The position numbers and the translations under genes were made by a program. The notes beneath the pieces were generated by a model. It saw only the letters and a list, made by a program, of their open reading frames with translations, ran no database searches and was not told where the DNA came from. DNA of 64,000 nucleotides from Squalus acanthias (taxonomy: Eukaryota), in the NCBI GenBank assembly GCA_030390025.1, contig CM059431.1, forward strand, positions 101,186,001 through 101,250,000. Direction: 5' to 3'. Shown here in pieces: positions 3,640 through 18,622 of this stretch. Within the stretch, counting starts at the first letter, position 1; each line of letters opens with the position of its first letter.

Positions 3640-4070
3640 TACTCTATGGGCCTATATACTCTCTGGAGTTTAGAAGAATGAGAGGTGATCTCAGTGAAAC
3701 AAACAAGATTCTGAGGGGGATTGACAGGGTAGATGCTGAGAGGTTGTTTCCCCTGGGCTGGAGAGTCTAGAACTCTAGGGGGCATAGACTCAGGATAAGG
3801 GGTAGGTCATTTAAGACCGAGCTGAGAAGGAATTTCTTCACTCAGAGGGTTGTGAATCTTTGGAATTCTCTGCCCCAGAGGGCTGTGAATGCAGAGTCAT
3901 TGAGTATATTCAAGGCTGAGATAGATAGATCTTTGGACTCTAGGGAATCAAGGGATGTGGGGATCGGGCGGGAAAGTGGAGTTGAGATCGAAGATCAGCC
4001 TTGATCTTACTGAGTGGCAGGGCAGGCTCGAGGGGCCGAGTGGCCTGCTGCTGCTCCTAATTTTTATGAA
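3640..4070 (+). mobile_element. CR1 3' fragment (another at about 2845-3170)
   Basis: ctatatactctctggagtttagaagaatgagaggtgatctc... through the gatcagcc...cctgctgctgctcctaa tail. Confidence 0.88.
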
Positions 4071-5613
4071 ATTTGTTTTCCTTTAATTTATTCCAAGAAT
4101 ATTATCCATGAAACATACATATCCCAATTTCTGTTTCAGACTGCGCTGGAGCAGGAGTCTAAGGGAAGCAATTTCTGCATCAGTCTTTGTTTAGAGCACA
4201 GACATGATGGCCCGAATGGCCTCCTTCTGTGCTATATATTTCTGTGATTCTATGATGCAACACAAAAAAGAAAAAAAAAAGATTTGCCTACTCCTGCTCC
4301 TAATTCTTATATGATTATTTTTTTTTGTCCCCATTGTGAATCTCACAGTATTACAGAATTATTACTTACTTTGAAAGCTGTGACAGCACAAATTGAACAA
4401 TATTCTTTGTGGACTTTTTGTAAAGTTTAATACATTTTATTGAAAATGCTTTCACTGTTTGGATAAACTCACAGTTGGTGTTTCCTCATATTTCTCTTGC
4501 TTTTGTTTTATCGAGAATTATTTTAAAAGATTTTTGTCTTCACGTAGAGTGTAGCAACGATTTAATTATGCGAGTCTTGTTGAACAACACATAATGCAAT
4601 GTGTGGATCCTGGGCCAATAAATTACTCTTGTGTAGAAAATGTTTCCAGTATATCAAGTGATTGGAATGCTCTTGTATGTTTGCCATATTACCCTGACTC
4701 GTAAACAGTTCCCACCATCAAAACAACGATTTCACTGGGAAATATTTCTCCCCCAGTCGGTACAAAGTGATGAAATGATTGATTGCACTGCTTTGTGCAT
4801 TTTACTTGTTAATGTTTTTTTGCCCCCCCCCCCCACCAGTGTTTGGTGGTTTCATTATCACATTAGTTATTGGCAGAACGACTGATGTTCCAAGTATTAA
4901 GTGAAACGTTCACATTTAGCATGCTGCTTTTCATGAGAAGATCAGTGGCCGTTTCGGAGGACTGAAATAGGGACAAATGTAATGCTCAAATGATCCGACA
5001 TTTTTTTCACTTTCTCAAGCCGTATGCCATTCAAAAATAAAACCTGTTCTGCAATTGGAAACATGGTGTTTGCGTTTTGCATGCAACTTTGTGCCAGTTA
5101 CGTTAGTGCACGAAATGTATTAGAGCTGCTGCAGCCGACACCATCCTTCCTGATGTTCGTTTCAGCACTGCACTGCTTTCTGCACCTTGATGTCAGGACC
5201 TGCATGCATACCCATGTTCCATTGTGCGTGCACACAAATCGGAGGATCATGCAATGCACCCCCTTCACCAGGCAGGCAGGAGCATCAATATAATGCTCAA
5301 ATGATGCAGAAGTAAAGTCCTAAGCTGCCTACGTCCTTTTCCAGCCTGTACACACTGCTTCCAAATTTGTGCAGACTCAGCATTGATGTTCACACTCGGT
5401 GCTGTACTTTTCTTTGCACGGATTCAGCACATAATTGAGGCTGGCACTGAGGTGCAGTACTCAGGGAGTGTTGCAATTTTGAAGGTTACTGTCTTTCGGA
5501 TGAGACATTAAATTGAGACCATTGTCTGCCTGATCGGGTCGATGTAGAAAAATACAGTAACTCTATTCGCAAAAGAGCTATGCTAGCAACATTTATCCCT
5601 CAACTAACACCAC

Positions 5614-5828
5614 TGACGTAATAAAGACTCACTACGCACTTGAACATAAAGCAAGGCTTTAATCAACTTGTAACAAAACATGGAGGTCTAGTTAGCAGTC
5701 ACTAGCTTCCTGTTTCCAGATTGTCTCTGCCCAAGGTGGGCCCATTCCTGAGTATTTATACTCCCTGGACGGCGCCCCAGCTGGCCACCCAGTAGTACTT
5801 CCTGAGTTGTTACTTGCGATTTATGACA
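5614..5828 (-). repeat. 3' LTR of the Gypsy element
   Basis: Direct repeat of 9867-10081; carries TATAAA (5760-5755) and ATTAAA on the minus strand. Confidence 0.97.
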
Positions 5829-5840
5829 TTCTTCCTCCCT
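5829..5840 (-). promoter_or_regulatory. Polypurine tract (plus-strand primer)
   Basis: AGGGAGGAAGAA on the minus strand, directly abutting the 3' LTR. Confidence 0.9.
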
Positions 5841-5866
5841 AAAAGGTTTGGAAGTCCAGTCTTCCT

Positions 5867-8800
5867 TTAACGGACTAGGCGGACCAGAAATAGCCGCAGA
5901 CGTTTAGCTCTCTGCTTGTGACTGGAAGGCACGTCTCCCCGGACCGTGTCCTGGTCCCTGGGTCGCTTGGCCCGTACCGGTAAGTCAGTAGAGTCCGCGT
6001 CATCTTGATCATCCTGTGGAGGACTGGGAATATCATGACTCCGGGTGCGGGTCCCCACAGGTGCTGAGCTGGCCTCATCCCGGGTCGTGGCTGGAGATTG
6101 TCCGGCGTCCTGGTTTCGGGTGGCCATCCTACGGGGAGCGTCCAGCTCCCTGAGTTGATCCGGTAGCATTGCCGGCAGATCCCCCGATGTCCCAGGCGGG
6201 GCGTCATTTTCATAGGGGTGCGGAGTGTTGATATCATTGTCGGGGGATCCTTCATCATTCGGGCCCGTGTGACCGGTTGGGCAGGGAGCCAGATCTCGGA
6301 GCGAGACGGTGGTCTCCCGGCCATCAGGGTACCGTACGTGCGCATACGTGGGGTTTACCTCCGTTAACTCCACCTCGTCAACGAGAGGGTCGTTTTTGGC
6401 AGACCGGACGAACCTCCGGAGTAGTACCGGGCCTGGAGCCACCAACCATGACGGTAGAGACGTCCCATGTGTAGAGCGACGCCGGAATTTGAAGAATCGC
6501 TCATGAGGCGTGACATTAGTAGATGTGGAGAGAAGAGACCTGATAGAGTGTAACGCGTCGGGGAGCACCGTTTCCCACTGCTGGTCCGGCAGGTTGCGTG
6601 ACCTTAGTGCCAGATGGACAGCGTTCCAGATGATGGCATTGTATCGTTCAACCTGTCCGTTACCAATTGGGTGATATGGTGTCGTCCTACTTGAGGCGAT
6701 TCCCCGTTGGGAGAGATAACTTTTAAGTTCACTCGACATAAAGGAGGGACCCCGATCAGTGTGGATAAAATTGGCCGTCCCGCAAAGGGAAAAGACCTGA
6801 TCGAGGCATTTAATTACCGTAGAGGTAAGCATATTAGGGCAGGGGAAGGCGAAGGGAAAGCGTGAATACTCGTCCACCATCGTAAGTAGGTAGGTGTTCC
6901 TTGTCGACGAAGGCAATGGCCCTTTAAAGTCTATGCTGAGCCTCTGCATAGGCTGCATTGCATGTATGAGTAAGCCATCTGATGGGCGAAAGAATTGTGG
7001 TTTCAATTCTGCACAAATCCTACAGGAGGAGCATGTTTTCTTTACGTCCTCGGTTGAAAATGGTAGATTTTTGGAGCGCACAAAGTGCAACATGCGGGTC
7101 ACACCAGGATAGCATAAGTCCATATGCAAATCCGCCAGAGTCGACGTTGACATTGAGGAGCAAAATGCCCGTGTGAAGGTATCTGGGGCCACGTTCTGTT
7201 TGCCGGGTCGGTAACAGATAGTATATCCAAAGGCAGCCAGCTCCATCCTCCAGAGTTGAATTTTATTATTTTTGATTTTCGTGCGCCTCCGGTTATCCAA
7301 CATGAAGGCCACAGAGCGCTGGTCAGTTATAAGCGTAAAATGACGCCGAGCAAGAAAATGACCCCATTGGCGTACAGCCTCGATGATGGCCGTAGCCTCC
7401 TTCTCGACGGGGGGGTAATGGAGCTCGCTACCCTGCAAGGTTCTGGATAGGAATGCCACGGGTCGGCCACCTTGATTCAAGGTAGCGGAGATCGCCACCT
7501 CCGATGCATCGCATTCGACCACAAAAGGAAGATTTTCGTCAATGGAGCGAAGCGTGGCTTTCTCCAGCTGTCGTTTGAGGAGGTTGAAGGCAGAAATAGC
7601 CGTAGCTTCCAATGGAAAAGACTTCGCATGGAGCAGGGGCTGTATTTTATCGGAGAAGTGTGGTATCCATTTTGCGTAATAAGCAAACATGCCAAGTGCC
7701 CGACGAAGAGAGCCGAGGTTTGTCGGGGGAGGGAGCTCCTGAAGTGGACGAAGTCGCTCTGGGTCCGGTTTAATAACACCGTTGCCCACCCAGTAGCCAA
7801 GAATGTTCACCGATGGCACCGACTTCACCGATTTGGATTCGTTTAACGTTAAGTGGCGACGGCGGAGTACGTCAAAAAATCTCTGAAGATTGGCGTCATG
7901 CTCCTTTTGATCATGGCCGGCAATAGTGATATTGTCTAAATACGGAAAGGTATCCGTCAAGTTCTCTTGCCGGACTAGGCCATCCATGGCCCGTTGGAAG
8001 ACGGCCACCCCATTGGTGACCCCGAATGGAAGGCAGCGAAACTGGAAAAGCCGACCATTGGCCTCAAAGGCCGTATACTTCTTGTCGGAGTCTTGCAGTG
8101 GCACCTGATGGTACGCGCTTTTTAAATCGAAGGTCGAGAATACCTTGTATTTGGCAAGGTTGTTGACCATGTCATCTATGCGTGGCAGCGGGTAGGCATC
8201 CAGATCGGTATATAGATTAATAGACTGCGAATAATCGATACACAGACGTTTTTTATGTTGTTTTAAGGGATTCCTCACGATGACGACCTGAGCCCGCCAG
8301 GGAGATGAACATGGCTCGATAATACCGTCGACTAAAAGGCGAGAGATTTCCGCCTCAATAAACGCTCGATCATCTTGGCTAAAGCGCCGCGATTTGGTGG
8401 CTATGGGTTTACAGCGGGGGGGAAGATTGGCAAACAGGGAGGGTTCACCGAGTAAGGCCGCCGAGAGTGCACAAAACGGCACCTTAGAAATGGTAAGCTC
8501 CGGCCTTGACCCTCCAAACTCAAAAGTGATCTTCTTGTGCTGCTTCTGGAAGTCCTGTCCCAGAAGCACATCGCTGCATAAGTTTGCGAGTACTCCGAGC
8601 CGGGTGGAGAGATACGTGCGGCCGTTGAGGATGAGGTTGACCAGACAGAAGCCAGAAGAATTGGTGGTCAGAGTCGTCAGAGCCATTGCAATCTCCCTGT
8701 CCGAGGGATAAATGTGCAGTTTTAACCTGTTGACAGCCCGCTTACGAATGAAGCTGTCAGAGCTGCAGGAGTCGATTAGCGCGCTTAGAGTGTGCCCATT

Positions 8801-9766
8801 TACTGAAACCTTCGTGGCTGCATGGGACAAACTTTGGGGAAAAACAGCCGTGATGGGAGGAGGGGCAATTTTCCCTTCGGCAACTGTAGCCTTAACAGTA
8901 GTTCTTGGGGGAGGAGCAGCTCCATAGATAGCAGCTGTGAAGCTAACAGGAGCTCTCGACCGGTATACTTTAGAGGAGCGGCCTTTCTTGTTAGCAAAGG
9001 CCCGTGACTGGCATACCTTGGAAAAGTGTCCTTTCTTGCTGCAATGATTGCAGGTCACATTACGAGCCGGGCAAAATTTTCTGTGATGGCATGCCCCTCC
9101 ACAAAAGAAACACTTTCTTCCTGATTGCCAGGATGCTGCTAGGGCGGGGTCGTCATCAGCGAAGGCCTCTAGGGTAGGGTCGTCGTCTGTTAGAGTAGAG
9201 TCAACATCAGTGGGGGCATCCGCCCGTGCACGTGGTGGGAGATAAGTGTCTGCATTTTTCTTGGCCAAGTCCAAGGAACACGCCTGGTCATAAGCAGCCC
9301 GTAAATTGAGGGTTTTATTTTCCAGCAGGCGCTGACGTATAAAAGGGGACGCGATTCCATTGATAAAGGAATCGCGGATTAGTTCCTCTTGATACTGTTC
9401 AGCTGAAACTGCTTTAAGGTTACAATCCTTGCTGAGCCTGCGAAGTTTCTGGAGAAATTCATCGAGTGATTCCCCAGGCTGCTGCCGAGTTGTGGCCAGT
9501 AGGTGTCGAGCAAAGATTTCATTTGGGGACTTGACATATAGCTGCTGTAAGATTTCGATAGCAGTGTCATAGTCTATACAGTCCTCAATATAATCATACA
9601 CATGAGGAGACACGTAGTTGATAAGCATTCGTAACTTATTAGGGACATCCGCCCCACATTCTTGAAGAAAGTTGCTAAAGGTACGAAACCAATGCTTCCA
9701 TACCTTTGCTGCCGCAGGTGCATTCGGGTCCAGGTCGAGACGAGCGGGTCTAAGGAGTTTTTCCAT
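5867..9766 (-). CDS. Gag-Pol polyprotein, 1299 aa (gag with tandem zinc knuckles, protease, RT, RNase H, integrase)
   Basis: Knuckles CFFCGGACHHRKFC and CNHCSKKGHFSKVC; protease LIDSCSSDSF; RT motifs RLCIDY, FDLKSAYHQ, LPFGV, YLDN; RNase H VECDAS...EKEA...TDQ; integrase SIDFKG / HTDRG / GQVER. PR-RT-RH-IN order is Gypsy type. Confidence 0.96.
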   Translation of the reverse strand: MEKLLRPARLDLDPNAPAAAKVWKHWFRTFSNFLQECGADVPNKLRMLINYVSPHVYDYIEDCIDYDTAIEILQQLYVKSPNEIFARHLLATTRQQPGESLDEFLQKLRRLSKDCNLKAVSAEQYQEELIRDSFINGIASPFIRQRLLENKTLNLRAAYDQACSLDLAKKNADTYLPPRARADAPTDVDSTLTDDDPTLEAFADDDPALAASWQSGRKCFFCGGACHHRKFCPARNVTCNHCSKKGHFSKVCQSRAFANKKGRSSKVYRSRAPVSFTAAIYGAAPPPRTTVKATVAEGKIAPPPITAVFPQSLSHAATKVSVNGHTLSALIDSCSSDSFIRKRAVNRLKLHIYPSDREIAMALTTLTTNSSGFCLVNLILNGRTYLSTRLGVLANLCSDVLLGQDFQKQHKKITFEFGGSRPELTISKVPFCALSAALLGEPSLFANLPPRCKPIATKSRRFSQDDRAFIEAEISRLLVDGIIEPCSSPWRAQVVIVRNPLKQHKKRLCIDYSQSINLYTDLDAYPLPRIDDMVNNLAKYKVFSTFDLKSAYHQVPLQDSDKKYTAFEANGRLFQFRCLPFGVTNGVAVFQRAMDGLVRQENLTDTFPYLDNITIAGHDQKEHDANLQRFFDVLRRRHLTLNESKSVKSVPSVNILGYWVGNGVIKPDPERLRPLQELPPPTNLGSLRRALGMFAYYAKWIPHFSDKIQPLLHAKSFPLEATAISAFNLLKRQLEKATLRSIDENLPFVVECDASEVAISATLNQGGRPVAFLSRTLQGSELHYPPVEKEATAIIEAVRQWGHFLARRHFTLITDQRSVAFMLDNRRRTKIKNNKIQLWRMELAAFGYTICYRPGKQNVAPDTFTRAFCSSMSTSTLADLHMDLCYPGVTRMLHFVRSKNLPFSTEDVKKTCSSCRICAELKPQFFRPSDGLLIHAMQPMQRLSIDFKGPLPSSTRNTYLLTMVDEYSRFPFAFPCPNMLTSTVIKCLDQVFSLCGTANFIHTDRGPSFMSSELKSYLSQRGIASSRTTPYHPIGNGQVERYNAIIWNAVHLALRSRNLPDQQWETVLPDALHSIRSLLSTSTNVTPHERFFKFRRRSTHGTSLPSWLVAPGPVLLRRFVRSAKNDPLVDEVELTEVNPTYAHVRYPDGRETTVSLRDLAPCPTGHTGPNDEGSPDNDINTPHPYENDAPPGTSGDLPAMLPDQLRELDAPRRMATRNQDAGQSPATTRDEASSAPVGTRTRSHDIPSPPQDDQDDADSTDLPVRAKRPRDQDTVRGDVPSSHKQRAKRLRLFLVRLVR

Positions 9767-9852
9767 GATGGATCAGTTTCTTGCCCAAGTTCCCTTCTGT
9801 GGTTCGAGTTGCAGCTGGTTGTTCCGAATCACCCAAAGCGTGGAGACGATAG

Positions 9853-9865
9853 CAAGTTGATTAAA
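9853..9865 (-). promoter_or_regulatory. Non-tRNA primer-binding site, complementary to the element's own LTR
   Basis: TTTAATCAACTTG one base inside the 5' LTR boundary; no TGG start; exact reverse complement of the LTR segment read 9923->9911. Confidence 0.75.
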
Positions 9866-9866
9866 T

Positions 9867-10081
9867 TGACGTAATAAAGACTCACTACGCACTTGAACAT
9901 AAAGCAAGGCTTTAATCAACTTGTAACAAAACATGGAGGTCTAGTTAGCAGTCACTAGCTTCCTGTTTCCAGATTGTCTCTGCCCAAGGTGGGCCCATTC
10001 CTGAGTATTTATTCTCCCTGGACGGCGCCCCAGCTGGCCACCCAGTAGTACTTCCTGAGTTGTTACTTGCGATTTATGACA
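9867..10081 (-). repeat. 5' LTR of the Gypsy element
   Basis: Direct repeat of 5614-5828; termini TGTCA...CGTCA on the minus strand. Confidence 0.97.
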
Positions 10082-10651
10082 ACCACCAAGACAGATTCAT
10101 TGATCATTTATCTCATCTGCGGCTTGTGGAAACCTTGCTCTGTGCAAATTGGCTGCCGTGTTTGCCCATACAACAGTGACCGCAGTAATTAATTGGCCTT
10201 GAAGCGCTGTGGGACATCCCAAGTCCATGAAAAGCGTCATATCAATGCAAATTCTTTTTTCTTGTCTTCTGGAGTTTCCCTTTGCTGAGATCAAGGCTCA
10301 CCACACTGTCTCCTAGTCTCACTCTTTCTCAGGATCTTAAATCTGTGACATTCCGTCCCTCCCTCAGTCCGCTCTTCCTTCTACAAGCTGCAGAACTCTA
10401 AAGGCCAAGCCTGGCATCATCTATTCAATATTGTCTGATTAAGCTCATCTGTCCTTTTATTTCGAAGTGAGCATTGACACCACTGTGTTAGCCAACGAGT
10501 TGGAGGCAGCGCGGGACTGAGGGCAGGACTCATCACAGAAAACAAAATCTATTTACTCAGCAAACAGTCTACAGAGTCTATTTAAAAAAAGAGTCTCTAC
10601 AAACTACAGCAAACAGAACTCATGACTGAAACTACAGCACTGTCTCCCGAT

Positions 10652-14117: not shown

Positions 14118-16650
14118 TAGGCCTCCAAACAGTAGTGGTAATGTAGGAGATGGCATTAGACAGGAAATTAGAGATGCATATAACAAGGGTACTACAGTAA
14201 TCATGGGAGACTTTAATCGACATATCGACTGGCCAAACCAAATTAGCAATAATACTGTGGAGGATGAATTCCTGGAGTGTGTACAAGATGGTTTTTTAGA
14301 CCAGTACGTTGAGAAGCCAACTAGGGAACAGGCTATCCTAGATTGGGTATTGTGCAATGAGAAGGGGTTAATTAATAATCTTGTTGTGCGGGGTTCTTTA
14401 GGGAAGAGTGACCATAACATGATAGAATTCTTCATTAAGATGGAAAGTGAAGAAGTCCAATCCGAAACTAGGGTCCTAAATCTAAACAAAGGAAACTACA
14501 ATGGTATGAGGAGTGAGTTGGCTATGATAGATAGGGGAGCTTCATTAAAAGGCATGACGGTGGATAGGCAATGGCTATCATTTAAGGAACGAATGCATGA
14601 ATTGCAACAGTTATACATTCCTTCCTGGCGCAAAAACACAAAAGGAAAAGTGGCCCAACCATGGCTAACAAAAGAAATTAAGGAGAGTATTAGATCCAAA
14701 GAGGAGTCATATAAAGTTGCCAGAAAAAGTAGCAAGCCTGAGGATTGAGAGCAGTTTAGAGTTCAGCAAAAAAGGACCAAGAGATTGATTAAGAGGGGAA
14801 AAATAGGGTATGAGAGTAAACTTGCAAGGAACATAAAAGTGGACTGTAAAAGCTTCTACAGGTATATAAAAAGAAAAAGATTAGTGAAGACAAATGTAGG
14901 TCCCTTACAGTCAGAAACGGGAGAATTTATAATGGGGAACAGGGAACTGGCTGGGCAATTAAACAAATACTTTGGTTCTGTCTTCACGGAAGAGGACACA
15001 AATAACTTCCCAGAAATGCGAGGGAACCAAGGGTCTAGTGAGAAGGAGGAATTAAAGGAAATTAGTATTCGTAAAAAATTAGTGCTGGAGAAATTAATGT
15101 GACTGAAAGCTGATAAATCCCCAGGGCCTGATAATCTGCATCCCAGAGTACTAAAAGAGGTAGCCATGGAAATAGTGGATGCATTGGTTGTCATCTTCCA
15201 AAATTTTATAGATTATGGAATAGTTCCGGCAGATTGGAGGGTGGCAAATGTAACCCCACTATTTAAAAAAGGAGGGAGAGAAAAAACTGGGAACTACAGA
15301 CCGGTTAGCCTAACATCAGTAGTAGGGAAAATGCTGGAGTCTATTATAAAGGATGTGATAACAGGACACTTAGAAAATATCAACGGGATTAGACAAAGTC
15401 AACATGGGTTTATGAAAGGGAAATCATGTTTGACAAACCTACTGGAGTTTTTTGAGGATGTAACTGGTAGAATAGCTCAGGGAGAACCAGTGGATGTGGT
15501 GTATTTGGATTTTCAGAAGGCCTTTGATAAAGTCCCACATAAGAGGTTAGTGTGCAAAATTAAAGCACATGGGATTGGAGGTAATATACTGGCATGGATT
15601 GAAAATTGGTTAACAGACAGGAAACAGAGAGTAGGAATAAATGGGTCTTTTTCAGGGTGGCAGGCGGTGACTAGTGGGGTACCGCAGGGATCAGTGCTTG
15701 GGCCCCAGCTATTCACAATATATATCAATGATTTGGATGAGGGAACCAAATGTAATATTGTGAGTAGTGAGGAGGATGCAAAGAGGCTTCATGGCGATTT
15801 AGACAAGTTGAGTGAGTGGGCAAGTACATGGCAGATGCAGTATAACGTGGATAAATGTGAAGTTATCCACTTCGGTAGGAAAACCAGAAAGATAGAGTAT
15901 TATTTAAATGGGGATAGATTGGGAAATGCTGATGTACAAAGGGACCTGGGTGTCCTTATACACCAGTCACTGAAAGCAAACATGCAGGTGCAGCAAGCAG
16001 TTAGGAAGGCAAATGGTATGTTGGCCTTCATTGCAAGAAGATTTGAGTACAGGAGCAAGGATGTCTTACTACAGTTCTACAGGGCCTTGGAGAGAGAACA
16101 CCTGGAGTACTGTGTGCAGTTTTGGTCTCCTTACCGAAGAAAGGATATACTTGCCATAGAGGGAGTGCAGCGAAGGTTCACCAGACTGATTCCTGGGATG
16201 GCAGGACTGTCGTATGAGGAGAGATTGGGTCGACTAGGCCTGTATTCACTAGAGTTTAGAAGAATGAGAGGGGATCTCATTGAAACGTATAAAATTCTGA
16301 CAGGGCTAGACAGACTGGATGCAGGGAGGATGTTTCCCCTGGCTGGGGAGTCCAGAACGAGGGGTCACAGTCTCAGGATACGGGGTAGGACATTTAGGAC
16401 TGAGATGAGGAGAAATATCTTCACTCAGAGGGTGGTGAACCTGTGGAATTCTCTATCACAGAAGGCTGTGGAGGCCAAGTCACTGAATATATTTAAGAAG
16501 GAGATAGATAGATTTCTAGACACAAAAGGTATCAAGGGGTATGGGGAGAGAGCGGGAATATGGTATTGAGATAGAGGATCAGCCATGATCATATTGAATG
16601 GCGGAGCAGGCTCGAAGGGTTCTTAGTTTCTATGTTTTCTATGTTTCTAT
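14118..16650 (+). mobile_element. 5'-truncated CR1 LINE, dead (stops; FADD segment deleted)
   Basis: Endonuclease motifs MGDFN and SDHN; RT in 15166-16569 reads KCNIVSSEED, lacking [11 protein letters not shown]; tttctatg tail. Confidence 0.95.
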
Positions 16651-17514: not shown

Positions 17515-18622
17515 GCAACAACAATAGCTTGCATTTATATAGTACCGCTGACGTACTCAACGATCCCAAGGCGCTTGACAGGAGCTTTATCAGACAAAAT
17601 TTGACCCCGAGCCACAAATGGAGGTCTTAGGACAGGTGACCAAAAGCTTGGTCAAAGAGGCAGGTTTTAAGGGGCGTCTTAAAGGAAGAAAGAGAGGTTG
17701 AGAGGCGGAGAAGTTTAGGGAGGCAATGCCAGAGCTCAGGGCCCAGGCAGCTGAAGGCACGGCCACCAATGGTGGGGGGGTGAAGGCAATCTGGGTTGCA
17801 CAAGATGCCAGAATTGGAGGAGCGCAGAGGTCTCGGAGGGTTGTAGGGCTGGAGGAGGTTACAGAGTTAGGGAAGTGGGGGGGGGGGGGGGGGGGGGCGA
17901 GGCCGTGAAGGGATTTGAACACACAATGATGAGAATTTTAAATTTGAGTTGTTGCTGGACTGGGAGCCAATGTAGGTTAGCGAGCACAGGGGTGATGGGA
18001 GAACGGGACTTGGTGCAAGTTAGCAAAAAAAGCAACATTCAGCAATGTAATGTAATGCAAAGCTACAGATTAGGATCTCTCAGAAGTTCATGGTAGCTGC
18101 TTGCAAAATTCTAAACTAGTTTTGATGTAGCAATCTAACCATTTGGAAGCACTGCCACCTCTGAATTACAGGTTGTGGGTTTAAGTCGCAGTCCAGGATT
18201 TGTGCATGAAATCCAGGCCGACATTTCAGTGCCTCAATTTTAAAATTCTCATCCTTGTTTTCACATCCCTCCATGGCCTCGCCTCTTCCTATCTCTGCTC
18301 TTCCAGCCCTTCAAGACACCGAGATCTCTGCGCTGCTCCAATTCTGGCCTCTTGCGCATTCCCCAATTTTAATCGCTCCACCACTGGCGGCCGTGCCTTC
18401 AGCCGCCCGGGGCCCTAAGCTCTGGAATTCCCTCCCTAAACCCCTCCGCCTCTCTTTCCTCCGGGGCCTTAAAACCTACCTCTGTGACCAAGCTTTTGGT
18501 CACCTGTCCTAATATCTCCTTATGCGGCTCGGTGCCAAATTTTGTTTGATAATCGCTCCTGTGAAGCGCCTTGGAACGTTTTACTACATTAAAGGTGCTA
18601 TATAAATACAAGTTGTTGTTGC
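17515..18622. mobile_element. Two oppositely oriented L2 3' fragments (17515-18025 minus, 18225-18622 plus)
   Basis: ggaattccctccctaaacc...aaaacctacctctgtgaccaagc...aaaggtgctatataaatacaagttgttgttg tail. Same family at about 1350-1625, 24885-25075, 38937-39285, 40178-40845 and 44365-45770. Confidence 0.85.

Follow-up and report, generated by a model that had tools for sequence, protein, structure and literature searches.

To our knowledge, self-priming of reverse transcription has been demonstrated only in chromoviruses of the Tf1 type, and has been predicted in a few plant and fungal lineages. In Tf1, the 11 bases at the start of the transcript pair with the primer-binding site (PBS); cleavage by RNase H falls between bases 11 and 12 (PMC7175516, PMC4600332). 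Fungal and vertebrate elements of the Tf1/sushi group are described as self-priming (PMC6317226), and a PBS complementary to the transcript of the element's own LTR is found in Tf1 and Tf2 of Schizosaccharomyces pombe, in Tj1 of S. japonicus and in the Tf1/sushi elements (PMC7175516, PMC4600332, PMC6317226).

The element reported here lies in a 64-kb stretch of DNA, referred to throughout as the window, and likewise carries a PBS complementary to its own LTR transcript. As in Tf1/sushi, the fold-back sets the 3' end of the LTR segment beside U5, and a cut 3' of the paired segment would be needed. The paired length is similar as well, with 11 nt in Tf1 and 10-18 nt in the clade to which the window element belongs. 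Other features differ. The LTRs of the Sushi set measure about 570 nt (PMC3601003), whereas those of the present clade measure 150-250 nt. The Tf1/sushi elements are chromoviruses, which usually carry a single CCHC array, while Mag and Micropia/Mdg3 usually carry two (PMC2577118); the present clade has two arrays and no chromodomain. Moreover, its putative primer always ends at a hexamer resembling a poly(A) signal; it may or may not consist of the first bases of the mRNA, as the Tf1 primer does, and in the window family a TATA box lies 90 nt upstream of it.

In plants, a survey predicted self-priming from PBS-LTR complementarity for Tcn1 (Gypsy) and TAR (Copia), and for 12% of plant elements (PMC6317226). 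These differ from the present elements in lineage and kingdom, and the accessible text of that paper reports no link between the primer end and a poly(A) hexamer. The dictyostelid Skipper similarly has no TGG-type PBS and is thought to use unconventional priming, but it contains a polypyrimidine stretch instead of a complementary LTR segment (PMC5006619).

In overall architecture, the element resembles Steamer and its Steamer-like kin as well as the Mag lineage (A, B and C clades; SURL). These elements are about 4.5-5 kb long, with one gag-pol ORF and two zinc knuckles; their LTRs measure 177-187 nt and have TGT...ACA ends, and they occur in aquatic animals of different phyla (PMC8905726, PMC11046912, PMC6238403, PMC3601003). 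In contrast to the present clade, which has no such site, Steamer carries a 12-nt tRNA-Leu PBS, TGGTGTCAGAAG, directly past the LTR, and MchSLE1 carries a tRNA-Asn PBS (PMC8905726, PMC11046912). Within the open-access literature, no paper was found that ties self-priming to Mag, SURL, Steamer or Jule, although older papers may describe a PBS of the SURL or Jule type; nor was any found there that ties a self-primer to a poly(A) hexamer, for which an earlier description is possible.

Structure of the element and of its putative primer-binding site

The minus strand of the window contains a complete and intact 4.47-kb copy of a Ty3/Gypsy LTR retrotransposon, with the following features.

10082-10086 (no strand): target-site duplication GTGGT (as read on the element strand), upstream copy, from the printed flanks
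9867-10081, minus: 5' LTR, 215 nt, with TGT...CA ends; direct repeat with 5614-5828
9911-9923, minus: putative self-primer segment CAAGTTGATTAAA in the 5' LTR, with cutting and priming proposed at its 3' end
9911-9916, minus: ATTAAA hexamer, likely poly(A) signal, at the 3' end of the primer segment
9867-9910, minus: stretch enclosed by the helix (with A9866), comprising the rest of R and U5; two small hairpins predicted
9866, minus: spacer A, the single base between the LTR end and the PBS, read from the sequence
9853-9865, minus: putative PBS TTTAATCAACTTG, without TGG; exact complement of the LTR segment
5867-9766, minus: gag-pol, a single ORF of 1299 aa, with two CCHC knuckles, aspartic protease, RT, RNase H and integrase
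5829-5840, minus: polypurine tract AGGGAGGAAGAA, adjoining the 3' LTR on its upstream side
5754-5760, minus: TATAAAT, located 90 nt upstream of the segment in the 3' LTR; AATAAAT in the 5' LTR (10007-10013)
5658-5670, minus: primer segment as repeated in the 3' LTR, from the pattern search
5614-5828, minus: 3' LTR; LTR position 69 (5760 versus 10013) is its sole difference from the 5' LTR
5609-5613 (no strand): target-site duplication GTGGT, downstream copy, 5 bp, from the printed flanks

The two LTRs are identical at 214 of 215 positions, and the 5' LTR terminates in ...ACGTCA at 9867 (minus-strand reading). Pfam modules appear in the ORF in the order Asp_protease_2 (residues 319-406), RVT_1 (520-659), RT_RNaseH (744-846), Integrase_H2C2 (875-923) and rve (938-1033), preceded in gag by two CCHC arrays in tandem, CFFCGGACHHRKFC and CNHCSKKGHFSKVC. 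No match to Chromo was detected in the ORF (Pfam, E up to 0.01). The best solved relatives of the ORF are the Ty3 Gag-Pol (7q5b; E 2.7e-55) and the Ty3 RT (4ol8). The domain order between LTRs, the TG...CA ends, the short target duplication and the polypurine tract are those of Ty3/Gypsy elements (Metaviridae), and the copy is an intact, recently inserted, non-chromoviral member of that group.

Several details of the coding region deserve mention. Motif C of the RT (residues 609-612; window 7930-7941, minus) reads YLDN, the usual form being YxDD; among 27 aligned family members, 23 have Y-x-D-N and 4 have Y-x-D-D, which is unusual for an apparently active RT. The C-terminus of the ORF (window 5867-6000, minus) is a basic tail rich in Leu and Arg. 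The relatives share a C-terminal motif, R-R-S-x-R-x-x-K-P-P-x-R-Y-G, and the window copy ends otherwise.

The family was also traced in public sequencing runs. Twenty runs, drawn from 9 studies and bearing at least 6 coded organism labels, contain 71-83% of the 31-mers of the element (window 5500-10200). Contigs were compared from three runs (X1, X2 and X18), in which the depth over the LTR is several-fold that over the internal region and the flanks are many and different; for these reasons, all three look like genomic DNA. None of 23 runs is recorded as an RNA source for the element, and the raw RNA-seq run X21 yielded 0 reads of it. In a DNA run, the word depth over the element is very high, which points to a high-copy family, near-identical across the organism labels. 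Relative to the main family form, the window copy is 14 codons off the majority in gag: at window 9220-9226, the main form has 42 more in-frame bases in all three of the contig runs compared (35 new letters and a 7-nt overlap).

The PBS (9865-9853) and the LTR segment at 9923-9911, both in minus-strand reading, are perfect reverse complements over 13 nt. The two arms are separated by 45 nt, and the PBS begins one base past the LTR end. Pairing ends at 13 nt on both sides, where A9924 stands opposite C9852 and G9910 opposite A9866. When the 13-mer was searched for in the whole window with up to one mismatch, only three sites were recovered (the PBS, 9911-9923 and 5658-5670), against a chance expectation of about 0.18 sites. 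With the PBS held fixed at the LTR end (offset 0-3), a 13-nt complement arose in 1 of 20,000 dinucleotide-preserving shuffles of the LTR. Folding of the RNA from 9930 to 9846 placed the 13-bp stem in both the minimum-energy and the centroid structures (-20.4 kcal/mol; z -3.48), and none of 200 shuffles folded equally well. A scan for bacterial promoters and terminators, a type of scan not relevant to such an element, returned nothing.

The earlier note on this DNA had proposed the exact match between PBS and LTR from the letters of the sequence, and both its coordinates and its description were correct. It had also remarked on the tandem knuckles, the apparent lack of a chromodomain, the ATTAAA at the end of the primer and the distance from a TATA motif, all of which were confirmed in the copy as annotated above.

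Conservation of the pairing among relatives

The occurrence of the same arrangement was analyzed in 28 regions upstream of gag, namely those of 27 metagenome relatives with at least 120 nt upstream of the gag start, together with the window. In 25 of the 28 (24 of the 27 regions from relatives, and the window), the same layout was present, with an exact stem of 10-18 nt closing a loop of 21-68 nt. In 23 of these 25, none of 100 mononucleotide shuffles attained the observed stem length. Two further instances were contributed by another pattern search, in the loci L021 (14 nt) and L061 (11 nt). Three regions, all of them decayed or doubtful copies, had no long exact stem: L068 (8 nt exact, or 14 of 15 when one mismatch is allowed), L059 (7 nt, with LTRs 94% alike) and, in L048, a second site of 7 nt.

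The layout runs in a constant order: a segment ending in a poly(A)-type hexamer (then usually GCC or ACC), the LTR end CA, a single spacer base and a PBS beginning TTTA. In the 25 aligned sequences (alignment A2), the spacer column is A in at least 90%, and the PBS opens with TTT one base past the CA of the LTR in 24. None of the 25 has a PBS of the TGG type. In several lineages, the distance from the PBS to the gag ATG is only 0-6 nt, which leaves no room for another PBS.

The sequences themselves vary by lineage. Those on the primer side include TTTAGCTAGTTAAA, TAAGCTGTTAAAA, ATTTCTAGTCGAATAAA, CTTTTGTTTGTTAAA, ATTATGTTGCTGATTAAA and GAATAAGTTTAATAAA, each fitting its own PBS, and the PBS sequences fall into at least 12 distinct classes, each matched to its own LTR. 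The same holds at close range: between L020 and L022, two members of one family, a G to T change in the LTR segment is accompanied by a C to A change in the PBS, and one change per arm is what separates L020 from L022 and L023, both closely related to it.

Sixteen pairs were counted in A2, giving 400 cells, of which 90.8% were paired, as compared to 27.5-48.3% when the partners were slid by 1-3 columns. The rows were anchored by their own complementarity, so that the tested register is favoured over the slid versions in this comparison; the anchors coincide, however, with the LTR end and with the hexamer, both of them independent landmarks, and where both LTRs are present the LTR boundary is fixed independently by the repeat. 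Changes on both sides were observed in 12 of the 16 pairs. Doubly changed cells numbered 75, versus 21.4 in shuffles, and the covariation score was attained by none of 500 shuffles. RNAalifold, without a supplied structure, returned the same 13-bp helix, with 9 pairs compensatory. One pair (column 11 with column 98) is an invariant G-C in all 25 sequences, ten positions from the 3' end of the primer, while its neighbours covary.

Copies whose LTRs are 99% identical or more and whose target duplications are clean (L007, L018, L020, L022, L023, L024, L057 and the window) carry the layout, which indicates that elements with this layout transpose. A possible additional hairpin directly after the cut, RCCT...AGGY, was visible by eye in about half of the sequences, with a mean stem of 4.24 versus 3.61 in shuffles, and did not beat the shuffles.

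The earlier note had suggested a geometry for self-priming without a tRNA, and had looked to the relatives for any failure to keep the PBS-LTR complementarity. The complementarity is clearly kept, and the layout is retained with compensatory changes. Since the relatives preserve the pairing in this manner, self-priming of the Tf1 kind is strongly supported, from comparative sequence, as a prediction for a whole metazoan clade outside the chromoviruses.

A model for priming and its alternatives

The best explanation of these observations is that the element primes its own reverse transcription by means of the LTR segment, a reading to which we assign a probability of about three in four. The pairing is located where a tRNA pairs in other elements, adjoining U5 but for a spacer of one base. 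The LTR segment CAAGUUGAUUAAA (9923-9911) of the genomic RNA would fold back onto 9865-9853, just past the 5' LTR. A cut after the final AAA (between 9911 and 9910) by the element's RNase H, as in Tf1, would leave a 3'-OH one base from U5, and from this end the RT would extend through the spacer A and U5, from 9866 to 9910, to yield about 45 nt of strong-stop DNA. The short minus-strand DNA would then jump to the 3' copy of R, with the stretch from the hexamer to the poly(A) site (about 17 nt in the window) providing the homology for this first jump. Under the known scheme, plus-strand synthesis would copy the primer into the new PBS, such that a change in the LTR segment would pass to the PBS at the next cycle; the two arms would thereby stay complementary despite drift. 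The cut, the enzyme, the role of the hexamer in polyadenylation and the 5' end of the primer are the parts of this scheme that we infer.

The last six bases of the segment in the 25 sequences of A2 are ATTAAA in 9, AATAAA in 5, GTTAAA in 5, TTTAAA in 1 and TTAAAA or TTAATA in 2; the hexamer is mutated in 3 decayed copies, in which the PBS still reads TTTAAT. The ATTAAA that the earlier note had seen at the primer end, or its AATAAA counterpart, thus occupies the equivalent spot in 14 of the 25. In the window, the hexamer is followed 16-17 nt downstream by CA (9895-9894) and then by a GT-rich run. Hexamer, CA and GT-rich run in succession form the textbook arrangement for poly(A) cleavage, and on this pattern the hexamer is likely a poly(A) signal and the CA at 9895-9894 the presumed cleavage site. 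The contig of L021, the only one with A-rich ends among those checked, was considered as a poly(A)-tailed transcript and rejected, its sequence being permuted.

The hexamer also bears on an alternative, according to which the helix would be selected for a job other than priming, either the hiding of the 5' poly(A) hexamer or packaging and dimerisation, with something else as the true primer. The hexamer always stands at the 3' end of the helix. It would be hidden in the 5' copy alone, as the PBS exists only there, and the copy of the segment in the 3' LTR (5658-5670), having no downstream partner, would remain unpaired. HIV-1 is known to conceal its 5' poly(A) signal in a hairpin. Occlusion, however, needs no one-base spacing from the LTR end, and yet such spacing is found in 24 of the 25 sequences; nor is there another PBS in the clade, where TGG is absent and the space ahead of the ATG is often shorter than 7 nt. 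A structural role of the RNA other than priming could maintain part of the covariation. Occlusion and priming are compatible, so that occlusion is more likely an added function than a replacement, and the hiding of the 5' hexamer is likely a second function of the helix and not a rival to priming. As a substitute for self-priming, this explanation is considered improbable.

Alternatively, the primer could derive from the 3' copy of the segment, if transcription started downstream of the hexamer, so that the segment belonged to U3 alone, and the 3' region of the same or a co-packaged RNA paired with the 5' PBS and was cut there. Poly(A) signals in U3, combined with a very short R, are known from some retroviruses, and in L021 a TATA-like run lies, by eye, only about 10 nt before the segment. 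In L077 and L001, by contrast, the loops measure 21-24 nt, and the start, R, the poly(A) site and U5 would have to share about 20 nt. The cut would, furthermore, strip the R and tail needed for the first jump on that RNA. This arrangement is accordingly judged quite unlikely.

Priming by a host tRNA, a tRNA half or another small RNA that matches TTTAATCAACTTG, with the LTR match as an incidental feature, is close to refuted, since changes in the LTR that are particular to a lineage cannot be followed by a conserved host RNA, and the PBS occurs in at least 12 lineage-specific classes, each fitting its own LTR. The CCA end of a tRNA requires a PBS starting with TGG, and no PBS of the clade opens in this way. 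No Rfam match was found in 5500-10200. tRNA genes with which to compare the PBS were detected neither in the window nor in 34 loci. Finally, chance complementarity in an AT-rich stretch, notwithstanding the one shuffle in 20,000 that attained 13 nt, is refuted by the comparative data, the same layout occurring in 26 independent relatives with different sequences.

For self-priming from the LTR segment, the 5' end of the primer can be placed in two ways. The TATAAAT of the window family lies 90 nt upstream of the segment, the TATA distance to which the earlier note had pointed, and a start is therefore predicted about 58 nt before the segment, such that the primer may be internal. The form AATAAAT in the 5' LTR results from the single mismatch between the LTRs. 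No variant at 5760 is listed in the runs, and the TATAAAT of the 3' LTR is apparently the common form, although an absent entry is no proof of it. The motif TATAWAW was found upstream of the segment in the LTRs of none of 26 relatives' regions, so the TATA box is private to the window family. Around the start of the helix, on the other hand, the A2 sequences have a T-rich run followed by W-A-G-T with an invariant G, whose resemblance to an initiator (YWAGT) is suggestive only. An internal primer would differ from that of Tf1 and would pose the problem of how plus-strand strong-stop synthesis stops. A terminal primer is favoured because, with an internal one, this synthesis could pass the copy of the PBS. 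On these sequence features, the primer probably begins at or near the transcription start, as in Tf1, and is the less likely to be an internal piece.

The sequence evidence extends self-priming to a large clade of still-active animal Gypsy elements, which annotation tools that search for a tRNA PBS would mislabel as lacking one. The fixed overlap between the primer end and a hexamer of the poly(A) type represents a new feature of design, with a compact and testable model RNA of about 85 nt. An internal cut, if true, would be a new variant of self-priming. 3' tRNA fragments are reported to repress tRNA-primed elements (PMC7472051); elements that are not primed by tRNA offer such fragments no target.

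More speculatively, a clade extending from cnidarians to vertebrates may have fused its primer with its poly(A) signal, such that one 13-bp helix would do two jobs, supplying the primer (possibly through internal cleavage of a TATA-driven transcript, some 70 nt from its start) and hiding the 5' signal, while tRNA independence would free the clade from silencing by tRNA fragments and from host-specific primers. This combined proposal is tentative and, taken as a whole, rather doubtful.

Relationships and distribution of the clade

A protein search recovered 1237 relatives, and a second search among shorter proteins recovered 3208; the best 120 of each were examined for hosts and modules. Among the matches listed, the hosts include shrimp, copepod, tunicate, mussel, gastropod, cephalopod, fluke, whipworm, spider, catshark, stingray, Hydra, Nematostella and corals. 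The chromodomain (PF00385) was annotated on none of these 240 relatives (the best 120 of 1237 and 120 of 3208), in agreement with its absence from the window ORF. A scan of metagenome contigs provided 80 loci, whose relatives show 42-70% protein identity, and no relative was found in IMG/VR.

The domain order, the lack of a chromodomain and the two CCHC arrays identify the element as a non-chromoviral Ty3/Gypsy with Mag-like architecture. In a pol tree of 41 rows, carriers of the signature appear in every major branch; the tree is composed of loci and of database proteins named by host. The assignment of the clade to Mag is thus provisional and based on architecture. The LTR pairs measure 144-248 nt, a length that agrees with the short LTRs of the Mag C training set, whose mean is 174 nt (PMC3601003). 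By eye, the start of the window LTR, TGTCATAA, fits 7 of the 8 positions of the Mag C consensus TGTNATRT, while its end, TTACGTCA, fits AYANAACA poorly; the LTR ends of L004 and L007 fit the Mag C ends at 7 of 8 positions (by eye, against the table in PMC3601003).

The pol of the window is 70-78% identical to proteins of Gigantopelta (a gastropod), Nematostella (a sea anemone), Xenia (a soft coral), Palaemon (a shrimp) and others, and groups with these proteins in the pol tree (SH-aLRT 99, 12 rows). The catshark and stingray copies are about 60% identical to the window pol and are located on another branch. This pattern of pol similarity looks like horizontal spread between aquatic phyla. Independence from the host's tRNA set fits a clade with very similar copies across phyla and, if true, tRNA-free priming could help to explain the 70-78% protein identity between copies in different phyla.

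Two minor observations concern repeats found in the course of the analysis. The window contains two unrelated interspersed repeat families, at 1551-1633 and 18537-18619 and at 3657-3938 and 16243-16521, with copies about 80% identical. In L079, an extra element of the L007 type (4789-9203) is oriented opposite to the matched gene next to it; its 183-nt LTRs show 100% identity.
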